64,000 bases of DNA from Planctomycetota bacterium. GTDB taxonomy: Bacteria; Planctomycetota; GCA-002687715; DRQF01. The notes below the pieces were generated by a model. The model saw only the letters and a program-made list of their open reading frames with translations. It searched no databases and was not told the origin of the DNA. A program made the position numbers and the translations under genes. Below are positions 44,665 to 55,260 of this stretch, one piece after another (position 1 is the stretch's first letter; each line of letters starts with the position of its first letter). Location of the stretch: NCBI GenBank assembly GCA_027001995.1, contig JALTLO010000141.1, forward strand, positions 65,336 to 129,335, given 5' to 3'.

Positions 44665-47600
44665 TCATCGGTTTGATGGGCCCATGGCGGTTGTAGGAAC
44701 ACCGCAGTAGCGTTTGTTGGCAAGAAGCCTCTCATGCTTCATGACCACGCTGTGATGAGAAACTGTGGTATGGGCCCCTACGTCAGCTCCATAAAGAAGA
44801 ACGGAACCATCGTGGGTCGTTGCCTGAGGCCCAACACGAACCCAATCCATCTTCAGGACACGGTCTTCAAAACTGTGGGCTTGAAAAAGTCCGTTCACGG
44901 TGGCGCCATCTTCCAAGATAATCATATCGGGGTCGACCACCTGGGCGAATCCCCCAGTCAAAATGACGTTGCGCCCGATGCGAACGCCCATGGCCCGAAG
45001 ATACCAATGGATGAAAGGAGTGCCCTCGAAGGTCGTCAGAATTCCTTGGGCCCAAGCCCCCCAAGTCACATAGAGAAAATCCCACCGGCTGCACCAGCTC
45101 GACCAGAACCCATGCTGCCCAGGTTTGACCCGTCCGAGAAGGGACCATTTTACCACTAAGACAGCGCAGCAATGCACCAAGCCTAAGGCCCCGGTGAAGA
45201 GTGGAATCCAAATGAAAGCCGCCTCTGCTATGCTCTCTCTCTTCAAGCACGCCAAGACCGCCATCAACCAAACCACGGAAGTTAGAAGAGAAAAAAGGGG
45301 GAGAGCAAAACGCAAAGACTCCCAGAACAATCGTTGGGCAAACAGAAAAAGCCCTGGTTCATGGGTGAGCGACCTGGGCATGTCGATCACCTCCCGCCGT
45401 GGCAATTCAAAGGCCGGATGCCCAAACCAAGAAGAAGCGACCTTCACACCCCTGTGGCTCTTGGTGCAGATTCCCAAGAGGATGTCTGGGGGTAAGGCAG
45501 CCCCGGATTCGACCACCCCATGATTGCCCAAAAAGGTGTTGCAACCCAACTTGGTCAATGCCAGTGTCACTCGCCCTTGTTGGATCCGTGGTCCTCCCAA
45601 ATAGATCCCATCAGCAAAGAAACTCTGTTCACCGATTTCGATAAGTTCAGGGACAACATCGATGATCGTGCTGACTTCTGAATTGCGCCCAATTTTCATC
45701 CCGGCCGCCCGTAACCACCATGGCCAAAACAAAGTACCACTGAGCCAACCGTTGGCCCTATTCACTGCCGCCGTTTTCGTCCAAACACGGATGTAATCCC
45801 AGGACCATCGGCTGATGCACCCCACAGGAATGGGCCCCAAGAGTCGGCAGTAGAGAGCCTGCATCAGAAGGCCAATTGGACCAGCAATCAACGCCGTCGT
45901 CACCAGGATGAGAATCAACGTAGGCGAGAGATGAGGTGCAGCAAGCCAAGAGAGCACTCTGTCAGACGAGATGGCATATCTATCCACGAAGAATAGGGAC
46001 AAGAGCAGAAAAGGCAGTGCAAAAACGAAACCAACACTCACCCCAAAAGCAATGCTCAGAATCCCGTGAATAAGAGGCGACATCTCCTGAGGGCGATCTA
46101 AGTCAGGGAGAGAGGGTGTAGACCGAAGCAATGTGGCAGGAACACCGTCCCACATTTCATCCTGCCCGACCCGACCGTTCTCCTCCACCACAGAAAGAGC
46201 TGTCAACCAGCCCCCCTCTTCCACCACGCCGAAACCGTTGACTCCAGCCCGGGTCTCAATCACCGCTTTTGCACCGACAACAACAGGCGCCACCACGATC
46301 TGCCCATCTTCATAGTCAATCAAGCGCAATGCCGCATCTTGTCCGATAGTTGCATCGTCTCCAATCTCAAGCAGGTCCCACCCCCCATGAAGCAAGTTGA
46401 CACCTCGATGAATATGAACACGCCGACCAATGGAAGCCCCAAGCAAACGCAGGGCCGTGTTTTGGAAAACCGTACCAGCGATCAAGCCCCATGGAAGGAC
46501 CTGAACAAACCGTTGCACCAACCAATTACGCAGATAGAAACTGCCATAGACCGGACGTCTCATGGCAACGTACTTGCCGATCAAAAGCCATTTCATGGCA
46601 ATGACAAAAGCAAAAGAAAAAGGAATCAAAAGGAGACCGAGGACGGACAGCACCAAGGGCAGCCCAATCAAAAGAGGAATGAGATCCACATGACTGAGCA
46701 CATAGGGCAAGACCCGATCGATGCCAAACCAAACCACCGGCCCAGACAAGAGCAAAGCAAAAAGTAAGATCACTCCCTGAATAATCCCAGCCCCCATGGG
46801 ACTTCGCCGAGGGGCTTCCGTCCTCTGTGTTTCCGAACTCTGAAAGTCCTCTTGTTCTTGTTGCTCAACTCGGTCCGCCAACCCGGCAATTGTTGGAGCC
46901 TGGTAGATGTCTCGAACGGCCAAGTGGCTGGTTTTTGGGTATGAGCGGAGGGCAGATATGACCATCGCTGCCTTCAGTGAGTCTCCCTCCAGGGAATCGA
47001 AGAAATTGGCCGTCGACGAGATCCCATCCTCTCGCCCGAGAACCTCCTTCATCGCCTCTTCAATCAGGCAAGGTATCTCACCTTCGCAAGGGCCAAAGGA
47101 AGCTGAAGTCGCCTCTTGACAAGAGATGCTAGGTAAGCTCTTGCGGTCCAGCTTACCGCCAACACTCTTGGGCAATTCACTCATGAAGTCAAAGCGGGAG
47201 GGAATCATATGAGTGGGCAAGTGAAGAGCTAGCTCATCGCGCAGAGCTCCCCCAGCGGGAAGCTTGTTCCCCTCCGGCACCAGCCATGCAACGAGCATGC
47301 TTGTGCCATTTTGTTTCTGAACTTTGCAGGCGGCTTCCCGAATGCCGGAACAACGGACGAGATGAGAATCCACTTCTTCAAGTTCGATCCGGTGACCACG
47401 AATCTTCACTTGGCTATCGACTCGCCCGAAGCAAGTGAACTGGCCGTTGGGCTCTTGAACAGCCAGATCTCCCGTGCGATAGATGCGCCCCAATTGAGGG
47501 TGCTTCGGGAAGCGAGAAGCTGTCTCTTCCGGAAGATTCAAGTAACCACGGGCTAAGCCTATGCCAGACAAACAAAGCTCCCCAGGATGACCTCTGCCAA

Positions 47601-48633
47601 GCACTTGGCCTTCTTCATCCAAGACAAATGCCTCAATGCCGGCTACAGGCTCCCCGATGGAAATCGGCTCATGCGGTTCGACGCGGCAGCGTAAAGATGT
47701 CACCGTACATTCTGTCGGGCCATAGCCATTTTCCAACCAGAAGGGTTCGCCCCATGTTGCGGCGATGGTGGCATCAAGGGGCTCTCCCCCCACATAGAGA
47801 AGTTTCATGTCTGGCAAGTGACGGCCAGGATCTGAGCATCCGCTGGCTCGCAATAATGTAGGAGGCGGACAAAAAACCGAAATGCGCTCTCTTCTGAGCC
47901 AATCGATCAAATCTGGACCCAGCCGCGTCGTCTCAGCATCAAGAACCACAACTGTGGCGCCCACGCTCAATGCCAGCCAAATTTCTTCCACCGAAGAATC
48001 ATAGGATGGAGAAGATCCTTGAGCCACCCGATCCCTTGGGGTCAAAGAAAACCGTTCCACATCCGTGGCCACAAGATTAGCAATAGAACCATGCTCAACC
48101 AGAACGCCCTTTGGCCTACCCGTGGTGCCAGAAGTGTAGATCACATAAGCCAAAGATTGAGGTCCTACCCAGGCCGGGAGCTCATGTGCTTCCTGCTGCA
48201 AGGGAGAGGCCAAGGTGTCTTCCATCACCACAACCTGCGTGGCGTCCGAGACCAAAGACCGAGCCCGATCAACATGGCTCGCCTCCGTCACCAAGACCTT
48301 TGCTTCGCAATCGGAAAGCATGAACGCCAACCGTTCATCCGGCAATGTTGGATCCAGACAGCAATAGGCACCCCCGGCGTACATCGCAGCGATCTGGCTG
48401 GGCAAGAGGTGAATCGAATCACGCCCCAGAAGAAGAGGAACAATACTCTCCCCGGCAAGAGTTAAAGCGAGCTCCCGCGCCAAAATTTTCGCCCGGCCGT
48501 CTAACTGGGCATAGGTCAATTGCAATCGCCTTGGCCGCCCCAAACCCGGAGGAATCTCTATCGCGATGGAAGAGCCATGCAACCGAACAGTCTCAGCAAA
48601 AAGTTGGGGGAGTATGAGGGGTTCCATGGTCAT
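44665..48633 (-). CDS. Pls/PosA-family membrane-bound single-module NRPS (A-T-TM/C1-C3; homopolyamide synthetase-like)
   Basis: A motifs YTSGTTGRPKG, YGPTE, YRTGD, QVKIRGHRIELEEV and GKLDR. T domain FFDSLEGDSL. Three TM pairs, each followed by an RxxGxxIG hexapeptide domain (RLLGASIG, RAAGMKIG, RAMGVRIG), and QAHSFEDRVLK. Confidence 0.93.
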   Translation of the reverse strand: MTMEPLILPQLFAETVRLHGSSIAIEIPPGLGRPRRLQLTYAQLDGRAKILARELALTLAGESIVPLLLGRDSIHLLPSQIAAMYAGGAYCCLDPTLPDERLAFMLSDCEAKVLVTEASHVDRARSLVSDATQVVVMEDTLASPLQQEAHELPAWVGPQSLAYVIYTSGTTGRPKGVLVEHGSIANLVATDVERFSLTPRDRVAQGSSPSYDSSVEEIWLALSVGATVVVLDAETTRLGPDLIDWLRRERISVFCPPPTLLRASGCSDPGRHLPDMKLLYVGGEPLDATIAATWGEPFWLENGYGPTECTVTSLRCRVEPHEPISIGEPVAGIEAFVLDEEGQVLGRGHPGELCLSGIGLARGYLNLPEETASRFPKHPQLGRIYRTGDLAVQEPNGQFTCFGRVDSQVKIRGHRIELEEVDSHLVRCSGIREAACKVQKQNGTSMLVAWLVPEGNKLPAGGALRDELALHLPTHMIPSRFDFMSELPKSVGGKLDRKSLPSISCQEATSASFGPCEGEIPCLIEEAMKEVLGREDGISSTANFFDSLEGDSLKAAMVISALRSYPKTSHLAVRDIYQAPTIAGLADRVEQQEQEDFQSSETQRTEAPRRSPMGAGIIQGVILLFALLLSGPVVWFGIDRVLPYVLSHVDLIPLLIGLPLVLSVLGLLLIPFSFAFVIAMKWLLIGKYVAMRRPVYGSFYLRNWLVQRFVQVLPWGLIAGTVFQNTALRLLGASIGRRVHIHRGVNLLHGGWDLLEIGDDATIGQDAALRLIDYEDGQIVVAPVVVGAKAVIETRAGVNGFGVVEEGGWLTALSVVEENGRVGQDEMWDGVPATLLRSTPSLPDLDRPQEMSPLIHGILSIAFGVSVGFVFALPFLLLSLFFVDRYAISSDRVLSWLAAPHLSPTLILILVTTALIAGPIGLLMQALYCRLLGPIPVGCISRWSWDYIRVWTKTAAVNRANGWLSGTLFWPWWLRAAGMKIGRNSEVSTIIDVVPELIEIGEQSFFADGIYLGGPRIQQGRVTLALTKLGCNTFLGNHGVVESGAALPPDILLGICTKSHRGVKVASSWFGHPAFELPRREVIDMPRSLTHEPGLFLFAQRLFWESLRFALPLFSLLTSVVWLMAVLACLKRESIAEAAFIWIPLFTGALGLVHCCAVLVVKWSLLGRVKPGQHGFWSSWCSRWDFLYVTWGAWAQGILTTFEGTPFIHWYLRAMGVRIGRNVILTGGFAQVVDPDMIILEDGATVNGLFQAHSFEDRVLKMDWVRVGPQATTHDGSVLLYGADVGAHTTVSHHSVVMKHERLLANKRYCGVPTTAMGPSNR

Positions 48634-48674
48634 TCCTGGGAAGCGTCCGGTCGTTCAGCCCTGGGCCCGATGGC

Positions 48675-49223
48675 TCACAGCGATACTTCTCTATCCTCAC
48701 CCCCCTCACAAGTTGGGTTGGCAAGAGAATTCAAACGCCGGAGATAGTCGGCCAAGATTGGTTCGCGCTGCACCCTTTGGGCATGGGAAAGATAACGAAA
48801 ACCTCGGACCACCTCACAGCAATTCAGAGCTTTGCAACTGCAATGAAAGGGTGTTGCTAACTGGAACTCCGTGGAATTGTAGTCAAAAGTAATCTGCTCC
48901 CAAGCTTCGACATGCCTCAGAGCCACAAGCCTCTCACCACGAAAAGCGGCGTTAGGGTCGCAAGAATGATTGAGACAGCGCCAAGGATAGAGGTCAAGAG
49001 CCTCTTCCGTGGGGACACCAAGGGCTCCATCGACATGTTCATCGATTCCGATTTGTACAGAGTAGCGAGTTGCTTTGGCAACCCTCTCCCCCTTCAATCG
49101 AAGAATCTCATCGCCCTGGGACAGGTCTTGGGCTGCAACCAGACGAAAATGAAAATCGACTCTGATGACTGCCACGAGACCAGCCACCTGGGTCATGGAT
49201 TGATTCTCTTTGTACTCAGACAT
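48675..49223 (-). CDS. Small SET-domain N-methyltransferase with post-SET Cys motif
   Basis: LNHSCDPN, EQITFDY and post-SET FHCSC...C; AGGAAGG RBS. Confidence 0.92.
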   Translation of the reverse strand: MSEYKENQSMTQVAGLVAVIRVDFHFRLVAAQDLSQGDEILRLKGERVAKATRYSVQIGIDEHVDGALGVPTEEALDLYPWRCLNHSCDPNAAFRGERLVALRHVEAWEQITFDYNSTEFQLATPFHCSCKALNCCEVVRGFRYLSHAQRVQREPILADYLRRLNSLANPTCEGGEDREVSL

Positions 49224-49608: not shown

Positions 49609-50775
49609 CTATCTAAGGTTCGCACCCAAGTTGGTCGTGGACCGCTCCAGAGCTTGTGCCAGATCTTCCATGAGATCTTCGGGATCCTCAAGGCCAATGG
49701 AGATGCGCAATAGATTATTCGGGGGCCCCAACTTTCCTTTCAGGTGTTTGGGAATACTCCCGTGGCTCATTCCATGAGGCAAGCTTATGGTCGACTTGGT
49801 ACTGCCGAAACTAACTGTGGTGGCAAATAGTCGAGTGAAGGACAGGACATTCTTGGCAATACTCTCATCCTCCACCTCGAAACTCAAAACTGCCCCTGCC
49901 CCCTCAGCTTGAGACTGATGCAGCTCATACCCAGGATGGTTAGGAAGTCCCACAAAGTGTAGCTCCCTCACATCTTGATTCTTCGACAGCGCCTCGGCGA
50001 TGACCTTGGCACTCTTTTGTTGAGCATCAATTCGAACAGCCAAAGTTTCCAACCCTCGCAAGAGAAACCAAGCATCCATAGGTCCCAAGGCTTGCCCCAG
50101 CGCATTGTGGGCAAAAGCCAAACGGTCACCGATCTCTTGTGCTCGCCACCCCACAATGCCGGCTGTGACATCCCCATGCCCACCCAAGAATTTGGTCGCA
50201 GACTCAATCACTAAATCTGCCCCCAACTCCAAAGGACGCTGTAGCCAAGGAGACATAATGGAGTTGTCGCAAGCCAGCAGGCAATCCCGTCGGCGGCAGA
50301 TATCAGACACTTGGCGGATGTCTGTGACCTGATGAAGAGGATTACTGGGAGATTCAATCAAAAGGAGATCCGTTTGGGATGAGAGAGCGCGGGAAACTTC
50401 CTCCAGATCTCGGGTGTCGATAAACACAACATTCGCCAGATTTCTCTCCTTCAAGTCGCTGAGCAGACGAAAACTCCCACCATAGAGATCTCGCGACACA
50501 ACGAGACGACCCCCAAGGGGAACCAAAGCAAATATGGCAGCCAACGCGCTCATGCCACTTCCATACGACAGGCAACCCACAGCCGACTCCAAGTCAGCAA
50601 CTTTCTCCTCCAGAATCCGGCGAGTTGGATTGCCACTCCGGCTATAGTCGAATCGAGCCGACGAAGAATTTTCACTGAAAGCGAAAGTCGCTGTTTGATA
50701 GATCGGCGTTGATGTCGCCCCGCTTAGATCCTGACGACATCCAGGACGCTGGACAATTCTGGTCCTTAAGCTCAT
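49609..50775 (-). CDS. metC: Cystathionine beta-lyase-like PLP transsulfuration enzyme
   Basis: PIYQTATF, YSRSGNPTR, SGMSA, ESPSNP, DNS, SATKFLGGH and RISIGLED. The beta-lyase assignment is inferred from operon context. Confidence 0.75.
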   Translation of the reverse strand: MSLRTRIVQRPGCRQDLSGATSTPIYQTATFAFSENSSSARFDYSRSGNPTRRILEEKVADLESAVGCLSYGSGMSALAAIFALVPLGGRLVVSRDLYGGSFRLLSDLKERNLANVVFIDTRDLEEVSRALSSQTDLLLIESPSNPLHQVTDIRQVSDICRRRDCLLACDNSIMSPWLQRPLELGADLVIESATKFLGGHGDVTAGIVGWRAQEIGDRLAFAHNALGQALGPMDAWFLLRGLETLAVRIDAQQKSAKVIAEALSKNQDVRELHFVGLPNHPGYELHQSQAEGAGAVLSFEVEDESIAKNVLSFTRLFATTVSFGSTKSTISLPHGMSHGSIPKHLKGKLGPPNNLLRISIGLEDPEDLMEDLAQALERSTTNLGANLR

Positions 50776-52505
50776 GGTCCGACCTCCTGATCAATCCCCT
50801 CACAAAGTTCATCTCGCTGTTCCCTCAGAATCTGCAAGGCATCCCCCAGCACCGCTTCAGCCGTTGGGTTCGGGCCGGCCCCTTGCCCACGCAACTTCTC
50901 CACTTCCCCAGTCTCATAGACAATGACAACCCGGTTTTCAGCGCCCTTACATTGGCCGAGAAACGACTCAGAGGAAACCTCCTTCAAGCGGACCGTTGCA
51001 ATCGGTTGAGATCCTCGAAGTGAAACGGACGCCACTTGCCGTAATCGTTCCCCAGCATCCTTCGCTTTCAAACAACGAGCCCGCGTTTCTTGATCAATCT
51101 GGTCTTCGACCTGGGTAAGGGGCCTTCGCCCCCAAATTTCGCGGCTCATAACCACGAGCTTTCGAGCCGCATCCTCTCCCTTCAAATCGTCTTGAGGGTT
51201 AACTTCACAAAACCCGGATCTCTGAGCCAATCGTACTGCCTCTTCTTGGCTCGCCCCTTCGTGCATCTGATCCAGGACAAAATTCGAAGTCCCATTCAGC
51301 ACACCGTCGATACCCACAACAGAGCGATTTCTTCTTCGAGACGCGACAATCTCGATGATGGGAACGGCCCCGCCCACGGATGCCGAGAAAAACAAACGCC
51401 TGCGATGCCTGCGCGCCACTTCCTTCAGTTCATCCCCATACTGAGCCATGAGTTCTTTGTTCGCCGTGACCACATGGCTGCCGTTTCTCAAAGCCGTCTT
51501 GACGAAATGCCTAGCCTTGGGAACGTCCCCCATGAGCTCGATGACCAAGTCTGTTGATTCGGACACAGAGCCGAGGGTATCCGTGGTGAGAAGATTCTGC
51601 GGAACATCATCCCCCCGGCGCTTTTTCAAATTGCGAACAGCCACCCTCTGGACGCGGAAACGTTCTGGGCTGGCCAGTAGACGGAGCAAGACAGCCTTGC
51701 CAACCTGCCCGCAACCTAGGAGCACAACACTCTTCGGCGACAACCTCTCAGGGGGTGCAAAAAGGACAGTCTTTCGAGCGCCCACATGCGTTCCTTTCCC
51801 GCCGCCCACTTGGCGCACTTCAAAGACCTGCCCTAAGTCGGCCGCCCACCTCACAGCTTTTTCCTGCAGAACATCACCGTCAATCGTGAGAGCATCTTCA
51901 AACGACAAGAATCGGTATTGCCGGGGGTTGTGCCCAGGACAAGATGGGTCTGACTCAAAGACACCATCCGTGTCCTTTAGCAGGATACAAGTGAGGGCTT
52001 CGACTTGGGCTGCCACAAAAATGGCTGTCAAGTCAGAACCACCACGCCCAAGAAGGGTTGGCCGCAAGAACTGATCACGACCAATGAATCCTGGAATAAC
52101 CAGAACATCGTATTCTAAAAAGAACTCACGAATCCGAGAAGCACCGAGGCTTTCGGGCTCTGCATCCAGAAAATTTGATGTCGTGACCAAGCCCAATTCA
52201 TGCCCCAACAACGGGAAAGCTGCTATCCCTGAGTCACAGCAGGCCATGGTCAGAAGGCCAACGGAGCGCGTCTCACCTGTCGACAAGAGTAATGCCAAGC
52301 TTCCTGCGTCCGGCTCGGGCGCTATTGTTCTTGCCTCTTGAATAAGACTATCAGTTGCCTCACCAATAGCGGAAACCACGGCAATGACTTGATACCCCAA
52401 GCGCCGATGACGATAGATTTCTTCAACAGCCGCCCGAATTTGTCCCACATGACTCAACACGGAACTACCGAATTTCAGGACGGCAATAGGTGCAAAAGAG
52501 CTCAC
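50772..52505 (-). CDS. Compact aspartate kinase-homoserine dehydrogenase fusion lacking ACT domains
   Basis: AK motifs VLKFGSS, LGRGGSDLTA and DGVFESDP. HSDH motifs GCGQVG, VTANK, GVLNGTSNF, DAARK and GAGPNPTA. Confidence 0.9.
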   Translation of the reverse strand: MSSFAPIAVLKFGSSVLSHVGQIRAAVEEIYRHRRLGYQVIAVVSAIGEATDSLIQEARTIAPEPDAGSLALLLSTGETRSVGLLTMACCDSGIAAFPLLGHELGLVTTSNFLDAEPESLGASRIREFFLEYDVLVIPGFIGRDQFLRPTLLGRGGSDLTAIFVAAQVEALTCILLKDTDGVFESDPSCPGHNPRQYRFLSFEDALTIDGDVLQEKAVRWAADLGQVFEVRQVGGGKGTHVGARKTVLFAPPERLSPKSVVLLGCGQVGKAVLLRLLASPERFRVQRVAVRNLKKRRGDDVPQNLLTTDTLGSVSESTDLVIELMGDVPKARHFVKTALRNGSHVVTANKELMAQYGDELKEVARRHRRRLFFSASVGGAVPIIEIVASRRRNRSVVGIDGVLNGTSNFVLDQMHEGASQEEAVRLAQRSGFCEVNPQDDLKGEDAARKLVVMSREIWGRRPLTQVEDQIDQETRARCLKAKDAGERLRQVASVSLRGSQPIATVRLKEVSSESFLGQCKGAENRVVIVYETGEVEKLRGQGAGPNPTAEAVLGDALQILREQRDELCEGIDQEVGP

Positions 52506-53734
52506 AGCGTTACCTCCCCTGTGGCGCTTATGGAATCAGACAAATTGAGAAGGCAAAACGCCAAGTCAGCTTTGAGATCATCAAAACTCTCCAAACCAAC
52601 AGAAAGTCGAATAAGACCAGGCGTGATTCCTATCCGTGCTCCATCATGAGGGTTCAAATCAGCATGAGTCATCGACGCTGGATGAGTCACAATTGACTGA
52701 GTGGCTCCTAGATTCTCTGCTAACGTGATGAGCTGCACTGAAGAAACCAAGGAGCGGGCCCCAGCGAATCCGCTCTTCAGTTCAAAGGCAATGATGCCCC
52801 CCCCGGCTTCTTGTTGCTTGGATGCCAGAGAAAACTGAAAATGGGAAGGCAATCCAGGGTAAAAGACATGGGCAATCGCGGGTAAGCCTTCTAACCAGGA
52901 TGCCAACTCCAACGCCGTTCGCGATTGCTGATGAATACGCAGTGGGAGAGTCTGAATGCCTTGAAGAGTCAACCATGCCTCAAACGGCTTTTGATTCAAC
53001 CCCATCGTCTTCAGAAGACGCCTCAGTTTTTTCGCCAACTGTGCATCGTCGAGGGTCAAGGCGCCGCCCACTGTGACATTATGGCCATCGAAATACTTTG
53101 TTGTGGAATAAAGGGCGATGTCCGCTCCGAGTTCCCGGCAATTCTGCAGACAGGGCGTGAGAAAAGTATTGTCAACAGCAAGCAACGTTCCTGCCCGCTT
53201 TGTCACTTCGGCGAGAGCCCCGATGTCAGCTATCTTGAGAGTTGGATTCGCTGGGGACTCAACAAAGACAAGCTTTGTCCTCTTGCTGATAGATCGCCTC
53301 AGTGCGGTGGCATCAGATGTATCGATGAATCGAACTTCAATTCCCAGGGGTTGGAGAACTTCCTCAATCAATCGTGTGGTTCCTCCGTAGACCACATCAG
53401 AGCAAATGAGTTCGTCCCCAGATTGGAGCAAAGCAAAAAACAGAGCCGTGCTAGCTGACATACCAGTGGCAAAACAAATTGCGTGTTGTCGCTGATCAAG
53501 AGAGGCAATGGCCTCCTCCAAGCGCGCTACCGTCGGGTTCGAAGCCCGGCTATAGGTGTGTTGAATAGAATCTCCGATGGAGTTTTGGGCATATGTTGTA
53601 GATTGAAAAATGGGCGAGACCATAGCGCCTTCGGCAATTGGCTTGGTGTGGCCACCATGAACGGCACGGGTTTCGAATCGATGTACGGACGCTGACTGCA
53701 TAACGTTTACTTCCTGCTTCTGCGCGCTGTTCAT
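52502..53734 (-). CDS. metB: Cystathionine gamma-synthase-like PLP enzyme
   Basis: PIFQSTTY, YSRASNPT, ESPANP, DNTF, STTKYFDGH and RLSVGLE; AGGAGA RBS. Confidence 0.8.
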   Translation of the reverse strand: MNSAQKQEVNVMQSASVHRFETRAVHGGHTKPIAEGAMVSPIFQSTTYAQNSIGDSIQHTYSRASNPTVARLEEAIASLDQRQHAICFATGMSASTALFFALLQSGDELICSDVVYGGTTRLIEEVLQPLGIEVRFIDTSDATALRRSISKRTKLVFVESPANPTLKIADIGALAEVTKRAGTLLAVDNTFLTPCLQNCRELGADIALYSTTKYFDGHNVTVGGALTLDDAQLAKKLRRLLKTMGLNQKPFEAWLTLQGIQTLPLRIHQQSRTALELASWLEGLPAIAHVFYPGLPSHFQFSLASKQQEAGGGIIAFELKSGFAGARSLVSSVQLITLAENLGATQSIVTHPASMTHADLNPHDGARIGITPGLIRLSVGLESFDDLKADLAFCLLNLSDSISATGEVTL

Positions 53735-53915
53735 GATCTCCTGAGAAAGAGCTCATGAGCTATGCGTTAAACGTGTTGATGGAATCGAGTCGCTCGTCTG
53801 CAGGGCAATCTGTTTTCTCCACGACGATGTGAAGACGTAGATTGCCTAGCAGGTGAAAGGCTCATGAATTATTGGTGAGTGTGGCCCAGGATCGGGCGCC
53901 TTCAATCGATGCTGC

Positions 53916-53996
53916 TTACTTTGAAGCTCTCAACGACCAAACGCATCCCCGACCTGGGCGGGGCATTTGCATCATGTTGGTTTGCATCGTTGACAT
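53916..53996 (-). promoter_or_regulatory. Met-rich leader peptide ORF (MSTMQTNMMQMPRPGRGCVWSLRASK*), candidate attenuator
   Basis: Hand-translated 27-codon ORF with 5 Met in the first 11 codons, lying between the promoter and metB. Confidence 0.7.
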
Positions 53997-54038
53997 TCTT
54001 GATCTCTGTTTTTTCTGTCCCTATGGTGGGACGGCGAA

Positions 54039-54067
54039 AGTATAGAGGCATTCTCTACATGAACCAA
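54039..54067 (-). promoter_or_regulatory. Sigma70-type promoter for the met leader/operon
   Basis: TTGGTT-17 nt-TATACT on the minus strand. Confidence 0.6.
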
Positions 54068-54313
54068 GCTTTTTTCCCAAATGGCGGACTGCCATGAATT
54101 TCATTTCGGCGTCTTTTGGATTGGCATTGTAATATCGTTCTCAACCAACATAGGGGTCATTGGATCAAAGGCACGATCTGAAGGTGACTCAGTTGAAGGA
54201 AAAAGCAACCCTTGAGAGAAGGGGCGAAGAACAAATCGATCAATGACATTGCGCAGATACTGAAATGTCGGCAGTTAGACCTCAAGGATATTGAAGCCTG
54301 TAGCCCCAGCGCC

Positions 54314-54370
54314 ATCAAGATCAAGATCAAGATCAAGATCAAGATCAAGATCAAGATCAAGATCAAGATC
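54314..54370. repeat. Hexanucleotide VNTR (ATCAAG) x9.5
   Basis: Perfect tandem copies, intergenic. Confidence 0.97.
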
Positions 54371-54466
54371 GTAGGTAGAGCGCAAAGAGCCTCTGAAGAT
54401 TTACCAAGTTGTGACAATCTTTATGTGGAGGTGAAGTAGGATCTTCAGGAAACGAAAGGAGGTTAT

Positions 54467-54997
54467 ATGAGAACACACACATGTGTAGCCCAAGTTTTGA
54501 TTCTCTGTTCTTTGCTCATCTGTTCTTGTGAAGAAAGGAGCACTCCGAGTGAAGCCACCAAACCGGTGGCCTCCAACGAGAAAGTCCTTCGGATCTTAGG
54601 CAGTATGGTCGATGGTTCCTGGGAGGGAAGGTCCCTACCCCAGCTCGATTGGCAGGACGTCGATGCACTCTTGGCGCGAGCTGACAGCACAACCGACCTC
54701 AAGTCATTCCCCGCCAACCCACTGTCTTCCCAGGCACAATTCAGTTGTCCGGAGGGCATCATGGCCCTGTGGTTGGTGGAGAGCATGCGCAACAAGGCCA
54801 AAAGTGGCTATCCGTCCTTGAATCCTCTCTGCCTCGGAGCCCAGAACAAAGACATGTCATGGGAAGAAATGTCCAAGGCGAACTTAGCCAAAGCCGCTCA
54901 GGCCTATCGGTCATGGTGGCAAAAGGTCAAGGACCAGGATGAGGAAAAACGTAAGGAGGTCGACCCTTTGGAGGCAGCCCACCTTCACTGGTATTGA
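54467..54997 (+). CDS. Lipoprotein (DUF4943-like)
   Basis: Lipobox LLICS-C, FPANPLSS..GIMALWLVESMR..YPSLNP and AYRSWW; AAGGAGG RBS. Confidence 0.65.
   Translation: MRTHTCVAQVLILCSLLICSCEERSTPSEATKPVASNEKVLRILGSMVDGSWEGRSLPQLDWQDVDALLARADSTTDLKSFPANPLSSQAQFSCPEGIMALWLVESMRNKAKSGYPSLNPLCLGAQNKDMSWEEMSKANLAKAAQAYRSWWQKVKDQDEEKRKEVDPLEAAHLHWY
54944..54997 (+). repeat. 54-bp direct repeat, copy 1 (3' end of the lipoprotein gene)
   Basis: 52/54 identical to 56639-56692. Confidence 0.95.
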
Positions 54998-55260
54998 TCC
55001 AAGGATGTGACGGCACCTCGGATGGCCACAACTTCTTCCCCTGATTTAGAGCAGATGGGGGTGGCCCATAGGGGCCACATTTTGGCCAGATTTATGAAGA
55101 AAGCTGGCAGGGCCGAAGCGGAATTTCTCCTTGTTCCTCTCCCACTTCAGTGGACGCAACTCAAGTGAACGTGGCCCAAACGAAACAGTATTCGAGCGAG
55201 GGGTGGTGCCCTCGAGACCAAGAAATTGGCGTTCCACTGGAAATCCGGCCCCCCCATTTC

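Follow-up and report, generated by a model that had tools for sequence, protein, structure and literature searches.

The leader in front of a putative methionine operon in the stretch of DNA analysed here (64,000 nucleotides, referred to as the window) is probably a ribosomal attenuator that senses Met-tRNA. A Met-rich upstream open reading frame (uORF) and a switchable hairpin recur before the same methionine operon in related genomes, which makes it likely that methionine is gauged by the reading speed of a ribosome. This agrees with the proposal of the first-pass annotation that stalling on internal AUG codons senses Met-tRNA, which is supported, at the level of sequence comparison, by the conservation of the uORF, by a covarying arm behind its Met codons and by the lack of a SAM riboswitch at the locus.

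Leader ORF, Promoter, and RNA Structure

The features of the leader and of the operon are provided in Table 1. The uORF is present as first described, with five AUG in its first 11 codons together with two Thr and one Cys. It consists of 26 codons, with AUG at codons 1, 4, 8, 9, and 11, so that Met occurs at offsets 0, −2, −3, and −7 from the last Met, and the last AUG is followed by Pro-Arg-Pro-Gly. Such a Met density is rare, being found in 8 of the 45,990 short ATG-initiated ORFs of the genome (at least five ATG in 11 codons). A weak Shine-Dalgarno-like GAGA precedes the uORF, and the 5′ UTR is approximately 36 nt long. The genome yielded no second Met leader, and none was seen by eye before its metX, metH, trpE, ilvB-like, and leuA-like genes. 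When the whole genome was screened loosely for codon-rich uORFs, 440 rows were obtained, for the most part noise among the matches listed, and a genome screen for the P-x-P-G motif gave 90 matches, the top one lying within a gene.

Regarding the promoter proposed at first pass, the −10 hexamer held up in the same-genus comparison, but the −35 hexamer is weak and a generic promoter scanner reported 0 sites at the window leader. Both same-genus genomes have a TTG-starting hexamer 16–17 nt from the −10. Further upstream of the promoter, the intergenic region contains a 6-nt unit repeated in tandem (54318–54370). The stop codon of the uORF had been placed 181 nt before metB. This distance must be corrected to 214 nt, given that the ATG conserved in the relatives is at 53701. 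The metB-like ORF can be extended to an in-frame ATG at 53734, 181 nt from the uORF stop, which lies inside a hairpin in a stretch (53702–53780) that is missing in both same-genus relatives.

Table 1. Features of the leader and of the operon behind it in the window.
Feature	Position	Strand	Evidence
Candidate −35 hexamer, weak (3/6 matches)	54062..54067	−	Sequence; same-genus comparison
Candidate −10 hexamer	54039..54044	−	Invariant in 3/3 aligned same-genus leaders
Small hairpin, presumed transcript 5′ end	54017..54032	−	Fold; transcription start deduced
Leader ORF, P-R-P-G behind the Met codons	53916..53996	−	Sequence and homologues
Internal Met codon cluster (codons 4–11), presumed sensor	53964..53987	−	Met positions common to the family
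Local hairpin 1:2, weak, takes in the last Met codon; rival of the long helix	53940..53972	−	Fold
Segment 2, begins 5 nt past the last AUG	53948..53959	−	Antiterminator arm in terminator-bearing homologues
Segment 3, partner of segment 2, 20–32 nt past the stop codon	53884..53896	−	Fold
Unstructured C-rich, G-poor tract, candidate Rho-loading site	53854..53883	−	Composition
Second strong hairpin, without U tract; possible pause site	53799..53851	−	Fold, z −7.0
metB-like PLP enzyme, cystathionine gamma-synthase family	52502..53701	−	Best match NF005871, below curated cut-off
Aspartokinase-homoserine dehydrogenase fusion, 577 aa	50772..52505	−	NCBIfam match
metC-like PLP enzyme, cystathionine beta-lyase family	49609..50775	−	Best match TIGR01329, below curated cut-off

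Segments 2 and 3 are paired with each other in the minimum-energy fold of the leader. The fold of the whole leader had a z score of −4.2 (0 of 100 shuffles as good) and that of the helix region −3.9 (0 of 200). Two alternative pairings had been proposed for the sequence behind the Met codons. The long helix between segments 2 and 3 was confirmed, with a duplex energy of −25.7 kcal/mol that none of 200 shuffles equalled; the local hairpin 1:2 can form (−11.9 kcal/mol) but is within chance, with 47 of 200 shuffles as good. Neither a terminator scan nor our own script found an intrinsic terminator in the window leader, and the place that segment 4 and the U tract have in the homologues is occupied here by the C-rich tract. 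The sequence of the second strong hairpin is unconserved, yet both same-genus relatives fold a hairpin at the equivalent place.

Operon and Genome Context

The uORF heads three overlapping genes, which encode the metB-like enzyme, the aspartokinase-homoserine dehydrogenase fusion and the metC-like enzyme. The fusion gene is the sole full copy found in the genome. Since both PLP enzymes are below the curated NCBIfam cut-offs, the names metB and metC are likely but unproven. The genome, which is 92% complete, encodes metH and a metX-like gene, and gave no match over the curated cut-offs for thrC, leuA, ilvB, or trpE, for which divergence or auxotrophy may be the reason. Because metH and the metX-like gene are present and no thrC was found over its cut-off, the operon most plausibly serves methionine synthesis. 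Co-sensing of threonine by the leader is unlikely, given its only two Thr codons, their unconserved positions and the lack of a thrC match over the cut-off.

With respect to other regulators, MetJ, SAM-I, and SAM-I/IV were not found in this 92% complete genome. A known SAM riboswitch that might explain the control of the locus, which the first-pass annotation had named as a refuting outcome, was found neither by Rfam (0 matches at E ≤ 5 in 52500–55000) nor with the models RF00162 and RF01725 run on the genome (0 matches each). An ArsR-like gene (C28:13472-14401) lies directly before metH, and we take its start to resemble SahR. There are also two rho-like genes in the genome (G000; C80:4148-5386 and C115:4441-5532), one over the cut-off and the second just under it. 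The minus strand of the window also carries, on the downstream side of the met operon and beyond palindromic spacers, a SET-domain gene and behind it the gene of a Pls/PosA-like single-module NRPS (44665–49223).

Distribution of the Leader Among Relatives

The fusion protein, used as query, matched in 12 of 61 genomes of relatives, 7 of 23 of the class, 24 of 401 of the phylum, and 50 of 251 of one neighbouring class, these sets overlapping. Upstream DNA was compared for all 73 distinct other matches, giving 74 loci with that of the window. The search for Met-rich uORFs before orthologous operons, advised at first pass, found them conserved with their Met codons at 25 of the 74 loci, this class having been chosen from ORFs with at least two clustered internal Met and then by eye. 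A SAM-I/IV-like pattern, defined by our own regular expression, was present at 32 loci (by Rfam, L017 was a sub-threshold SAM-I/IV match only, and L019 and L022 were unmatched), and the remaining 17 had neither. The two types did not occur together at any of the 74 loci, and no uORF with at least three clustered Met was found among them outside the Met class. Beyond the window, Met leaders were found in 24 other genomes of seven families, and all five same-family genomes with the operon carry one. It must be noted that 24 of the 25 Met-rich leaders constitute a single M-x-M-x-M-P-x-P-G family.

The 17 loci with neither type include L037, which is SAM-like and was missed by the pattern, L025, with an Rfam SAM-I further upstream, and some truncated by contig ends. 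They also include L023 and L045, with Thr-rich leader ORFs. The codons thus track the pathway, given that these two loci have no metB-like gene in front of the fusion gene. The L023 leader is at 1427-1347 on the minus strand, and its contig stops inside the fusion gene; the leader of L045 closes with P-x-P-G, has no met gene behind it and is seemingly without a U-tract terminator. The Met leader of L074 is of a different build; a terminator lies behind it, and fusion-metX-asd comes next (gene names assigned by inspection). At L074 and L089, alternating Met codons without P-x-P-G and with a terminator behind them were observed approximately 210–300 nt before the fusion gene. The Met leaders of L020 and L027 begin 8–9 nt past a −10 hexamer and are probably leaderless, unlike that of the window. 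A short palindrome near the promoter, a possible repressor site, was noted at L061, L076, L079, L083, and some SAM and Met loci.

The SAM-I/IV-like RNA precedes the same operon at L017 (2476-2628) and at 31 further loci and is well conserved. Since it scores below the Rfam gathering threshold despite this conservation (31 bits vs. 41.1 at L017), it may be an unannotated variant of the SAM-I clan in Planctomycetota. The sequences suggest that the Met leader and the SAM-I/IV-like pattern are exchangeable sensors of methionine status before one operon.

In a MetB tree of 64 tblastn-derived rows (L043, L065, and L079 left out), the Met label needed 3 changes, compared with 18.5 in shuffles. The six same-family leaders formed one clade, which is terminator-less, and one SAM locus was sister to two Met loci. 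Judging from the tree, the Met leaders are kin that travel with the operon, with few exchanges, and so are not independent observations. The exact leader pattern gave one match in each of four out of nine family genomes, always at the known locus, and a contig search across genomes gave one locus. Metagenome searches with the MetB protein and with a 30-letter leader pattern as queries found no match.

Conserved Anatomy of the Leader Family

Counting from the last Met, the 24 leaders have Met at offsets 0, −2, −4, and −6 in 24, 21, 19, and 11 cases, respectively, and at −1, −3, and −5 in only 2, 5, and 3, the Met at offset 0 being built into the definition of the last Met, as is a nearby Pro. 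The +1 codon is CCC in 22/24, the +3 codon encodes Pro in 24/24 with all four codons in use, and Gly is at +4 in 18/24. Over the ten codons up to and including the last Met, the 24 leaders together contain 96 Met, followed by Thr with 17. These regulatory Met codons are conserved across the homologues and the codons that space them vary. In 22 of the leaders, promoter-like hexamers were observed 50–109 nt ahead of the point where the last Met codon ends.

In the family, segment 2 begins 1–6 nt from the last AUG and pairs past the stop codon, which is located 11–19 codons beyond the last Met. The 2:3 pairing was better than approximately 95% of 200 shuffles in 23 of the 24 leaders, L062 being the exception; in cross-pairing, the own partner ranked first among 24 in just six leaders, so this comparison is non-discriminating. 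Segment 3 is at the same time the 5′ arm of a hairpin with a U tract behind it in 13/24. Among these terminator-type leaders, 92.8% of the cells of the 2:3 helix were paired, with 5 of 15 pairs changed on both sides, and the corresponding values for the 3:4 helix were 97.1% and 4 of 8. Both are far above slid controls, in a comparison whose structures were drawn up from the alignment itself and whose shuffle test is inflated by relatedness. The folding and covariation analysis called for at first pass thus identified the arm after the Met codons as a covarying antiterminator arm in 13 homologues.

Our script found no intrinsic terminator in the window or in the other five same-family leaders. 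Neither L016, where four U follow a later, long hairpin, nor L018, where the hairpin with U residues is weak, was counted as having a terminator. These six leaders retain the 2:3 helix with compensatory pairs. In the three same-genus genomes, a 25-nt block from the last AUG onward shows little or no variation, and the same holds for segment 3; the MetB proteins of the same three genomes are 62–65% identical and their leader spacers are unalignable.

Proposed Mechanism

In the mechanism that we propose, a ribosome would wait on the AUG codons when methionine is scarce, leaving segment 2 free, so that the 2:3 helix would form and the operon would be expressed. When methionine is plentiful, the ribosome would move onto the P-x-P-G codons and melt segment 2, and segment 3 would be freed. 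In the 13 homologues the freed segment would form the intrinsic terminator; in the window, together with the C-rich tract, it might let Rho end transcription in the 214-nt spacer. Considering the sequences and the folding models together, we regard it as fairly likely that the leader is a ribosome-mediated attenuator sensing charged elongator Met-tRNA.

The states of the leader were modelled by constrained folding, at equilibrium only and with about 24 nt kept unpaired per ribosome. A ribosome on the Met codons gave the 2:3 helix in 10–11 of the 13 terminator-type leaders, and in the window at P 0.88–0.98, whereas a ribosome on P-x-P-G gave the terminator in 13/13. Readthrough when Met-tRNA is scarce is, in these models, the sign expected for a biosynthetic operon. 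Once the ribosome was placed at the stop codon, P for the 2:3 helix of the window was still 0.81 and the terminator won in just 5 of the 13 at equilibrium; the protector hairpin 1:2 can form and was dominant in 9 of the 24 leaders in this state. The distance of the stop codon from the last Met, with the stop A-site 46 nt past the last AUG in the window, means that both segments are left uncovered by a ribosome that has reached the stop. By this geometry the OFF state would have to arise during the passage of the ribosome over segment 2 or a dwell there, or else through rapid 1:2 folding in its wake, which is weak in the window, and we infer from the models that it needs either kinetics or a dwell on P-x-P-G.

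The ribosome-free RNA of the window folds into the 2:3 helix (P 0.86), as do only 13 of the 24 leaders. Failed initiation would therefore leave the operon ON, just as stalling would, which we infer for about half of the family. Such a default would suit a sensor of the amino acid that also starts translation. According to the theory of selective charging, starvation discharges the elongator Met-tRNA before the initiator tRNA. A bolder reading can be offered tentatively, and we doubt it more than we credit it: the operon of a default-ON family, its logic inverted, would be shut only while a ribosome that has passed the alternating Met codons dwells on P-x-P-G. As parts of the same tentative whole, the stop codon would be irrelevant and P-x-P-G would act both as an arm of the RNA helix and as a slow or arresting peptide, in a module that could be reused with Thr codons, swapped for a SAM riboswitch in sister operons, and wired to a terminator, a ribosome-binding site (RBS), or Rho.

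Output Step and Alternative Explanations

The C-rich tract of the window is short, and its 30 nt include 10 C and 2 G, a composition that, scored post hoc, is reached by 0.7% of 40,512 upstream sequence windows. It is open in both folds, and the terminator-type leaders also have more C than G at this place. Together with the presence of a rho gene, the tract is a weak hint of Rho-dependent termination, which is the least bad guess for this genome and has, in our opinion, about an even chance of being right. There is precedent for Rho termination unmasked by uORF translation in mgtA and corA, according to the accessible part of PMC12360218.

The same Met-codon sensor could instead have a translational or RNA-stability output in the window, although this seems to us rather unlikely. 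RBS opening energies were computed for all 11 terminator-less leaders. In four of them (L020, L024, L031, and L085) opening the metB start region costs 3–5 kcal/mol more with segment 2 blocked or with a ribosome on the stop codon, which is the repressing direction, and the mycobacterial polycysteine leaders act on translation, as stated in the available text of 10.1101/834739. RBS switching was nevertheless rejected for the window, where the shifts are at most 1.5 kcal/mol with either metB start (10.1–11.6 and 10.8–11.8 kcal/mol) and where two hairpins and 200 nt separate the switch from the start. Other homologues speak against this explanation: L015 and L018 shift by less than 2 kcal/mol, L016 rises by 2.8 kcal/mol in one state only, and in L058 and L062 the change caused by a ribosome on the stop codon has the opposite sign. 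The loss of the terminator could also mean that the leader of this family is a relic that regulates no longer. It is true that all six same-family leaders form one terminator-less clade; the near-invariance of the 25-nt block and of segment 3 at that level of MetB identity, as well as the persistence of compensatory pairs, make a relic very improbable.

Other explanations concern the sensor itself. TnaC and SpeFL arrest ribosomes with their ligands, and plant CGS1 does so with SAM. In the same manner, the nascent peptide M-x-M-x-M-P-x-P-G might stall the ribosome on P-x-P-G at high methionine or SAM and turn the operon off. The alternation of Met and the use of all four codons for the Pro at +3 would fit selection on the peptide, and it is a ribosome parked at P-x-P-G that gives the terminator in every terminator-type leader, the stop codon being too distant for that. 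Reading of codons is favoured by the Thr-rich leader of L045, which has P-x-P-G without met genes alongside, and by the Met leader of L074, which lacks P-x-P-G. Moreover, the Pro and Gly codons are also the helix arm, with CCC at +1 so frequent as to indicate a constraint on the RNA, the Pro is partly built in through the definition of the last Met, and the peptide of the window deviates from strict Met alternation. An arrest peptide is consequently improbable in our view. Finally, a DNA-binding repressor or a riboswitch could be in control, the uORF being incidental. The ArsR-like gene directly before metH and the palindrome at several loci with neither leader type speak for it. The window leader has no Rfam match, no SAM pattern, and no such palindrome, the genome search gave no MetJ, and both the uORF and the helix are conserved, so we give this explanation hardly any credit.

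Comparison With Known Systems

In the classical attenuators (E. coli trpL, thrL, hisL, leuL, pheL, and ilv; the Rfam His, Trp, Thr, and Leu leaders), a ribosome that has reached the end of the leader ORF blocks segment 2. The family described here resembles them in its short ORF rich in codons for the product, in the antiterminator arm just behind the regulatory codons, and in the complete switch between 2:3 and 3:4 plus U tract held by 13 of the 24 homologues. It differs from them in that the regulatory codon is AUG and in that a ribosome terminating at the leader stop leaves segment 2 uncovered. By their sequences, the terminator-bearing relatives correspond to the structural definition of a classical leader-peptide attenuator. 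The window copy has no intrinsic terminator and is therefore not a complete trp-type attenuator; on account of this and of its stop-codon geometry, it was not filed as a member of the classical type. The accessible portion of PMC3766115 names attenuators for His, Leu, Thr, Trp, Ile/Val, and Phe only, and that of PMC1262725 deals with trp, cys, leu, and ilv leaders. Exchanges between sensor types are mentioned in the part available of PMC2965389. In what is accessible of PMC4007540, 14 leader peptides are reported, and the supplementary tables of small-ORF surveys could include Met-rich leaders.

The window leader shares with Salmonella mgtA/mgtL, corA/corL, and mgtCBR the long spacer, the lack of an intrinsic terminator and the presence of rho. 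In the mgtA/corA type, stalling favours a termination-resistant fold and full translation unmasks the Rho site (PMC12360218, accessible part). These leaders signal Mg2+ through Pro codons or ribosome function, whereas in the window the action of Rho is a supposition. Streptomyces lividans metL, before metNIQ, has been proposed as a methionine-dependent leader peptide and is untested; in the portion of PMC8079986 available, it also lacks a typical intrinsic terminator. In contrast to the uORF of the window, metL is leaderless, has 29 aa with 2 internal Met and 3 Cys, and precedes a transporter; the two have no motif in common, and that portion offers no comparative support for metL (PMC8079986).

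Among systems that respond to Met-tRNA charging, SAM-I(Xcc) of Xanthomonas controls a met operon, but it binds the uncharged initiator tRNA directly and possesses a SAM aptamer, without leader translation, as described in the accessible part of PMC7270179. The mycobacterial polycysteine sORFs are similar to the window in that a waiting ribosome senses a sulfur amino acid without an intrinsic terminator, and different in their Cys runs, leaderless start and translational output (10.1101/834739, available text); the window has one Cys, its 5′ UTR and a flat RBS opening energy. The literature within our coverage, which leaves out most subscription journals, contained no tested Met-codon attenuator. 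For the thrA of Pasteurellales, Vitreschak et al. reportedly described in 2004 a Thr/Ile/Met leader whose Met codons were predicted to act in attenuation. That leader also places Met codons before an aspartokinase-homoserine dehydrogenase gene, but in a thr operon, where Met shares the role of signal with Thr and Ile; in the family described here, Met is dominant and the genes are met genes.

Significance

The control of methionine in bacteria is known to involve repressors, SAM riboswitches, and T-boxes, and for several amino acids attenuation by a leader peptide is an established mechanism. Control by ribosome reading is known in kind and is not established for methionine. This amino acid is awkward for attenuation because its starvation can also block initiation on the leader, and the default-ON reading, if true, would account for a leader peptide being able to sense the amino acid required for its own initiation. 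The leader family provides compact, portable test cases of whether internal AUG codons report elongator Met-tRNA. It would also mean that, in an uncultured branch of the Planctomycetota, a ribosome sensor and a SAM riboswitch may be interchangeable on one operon.
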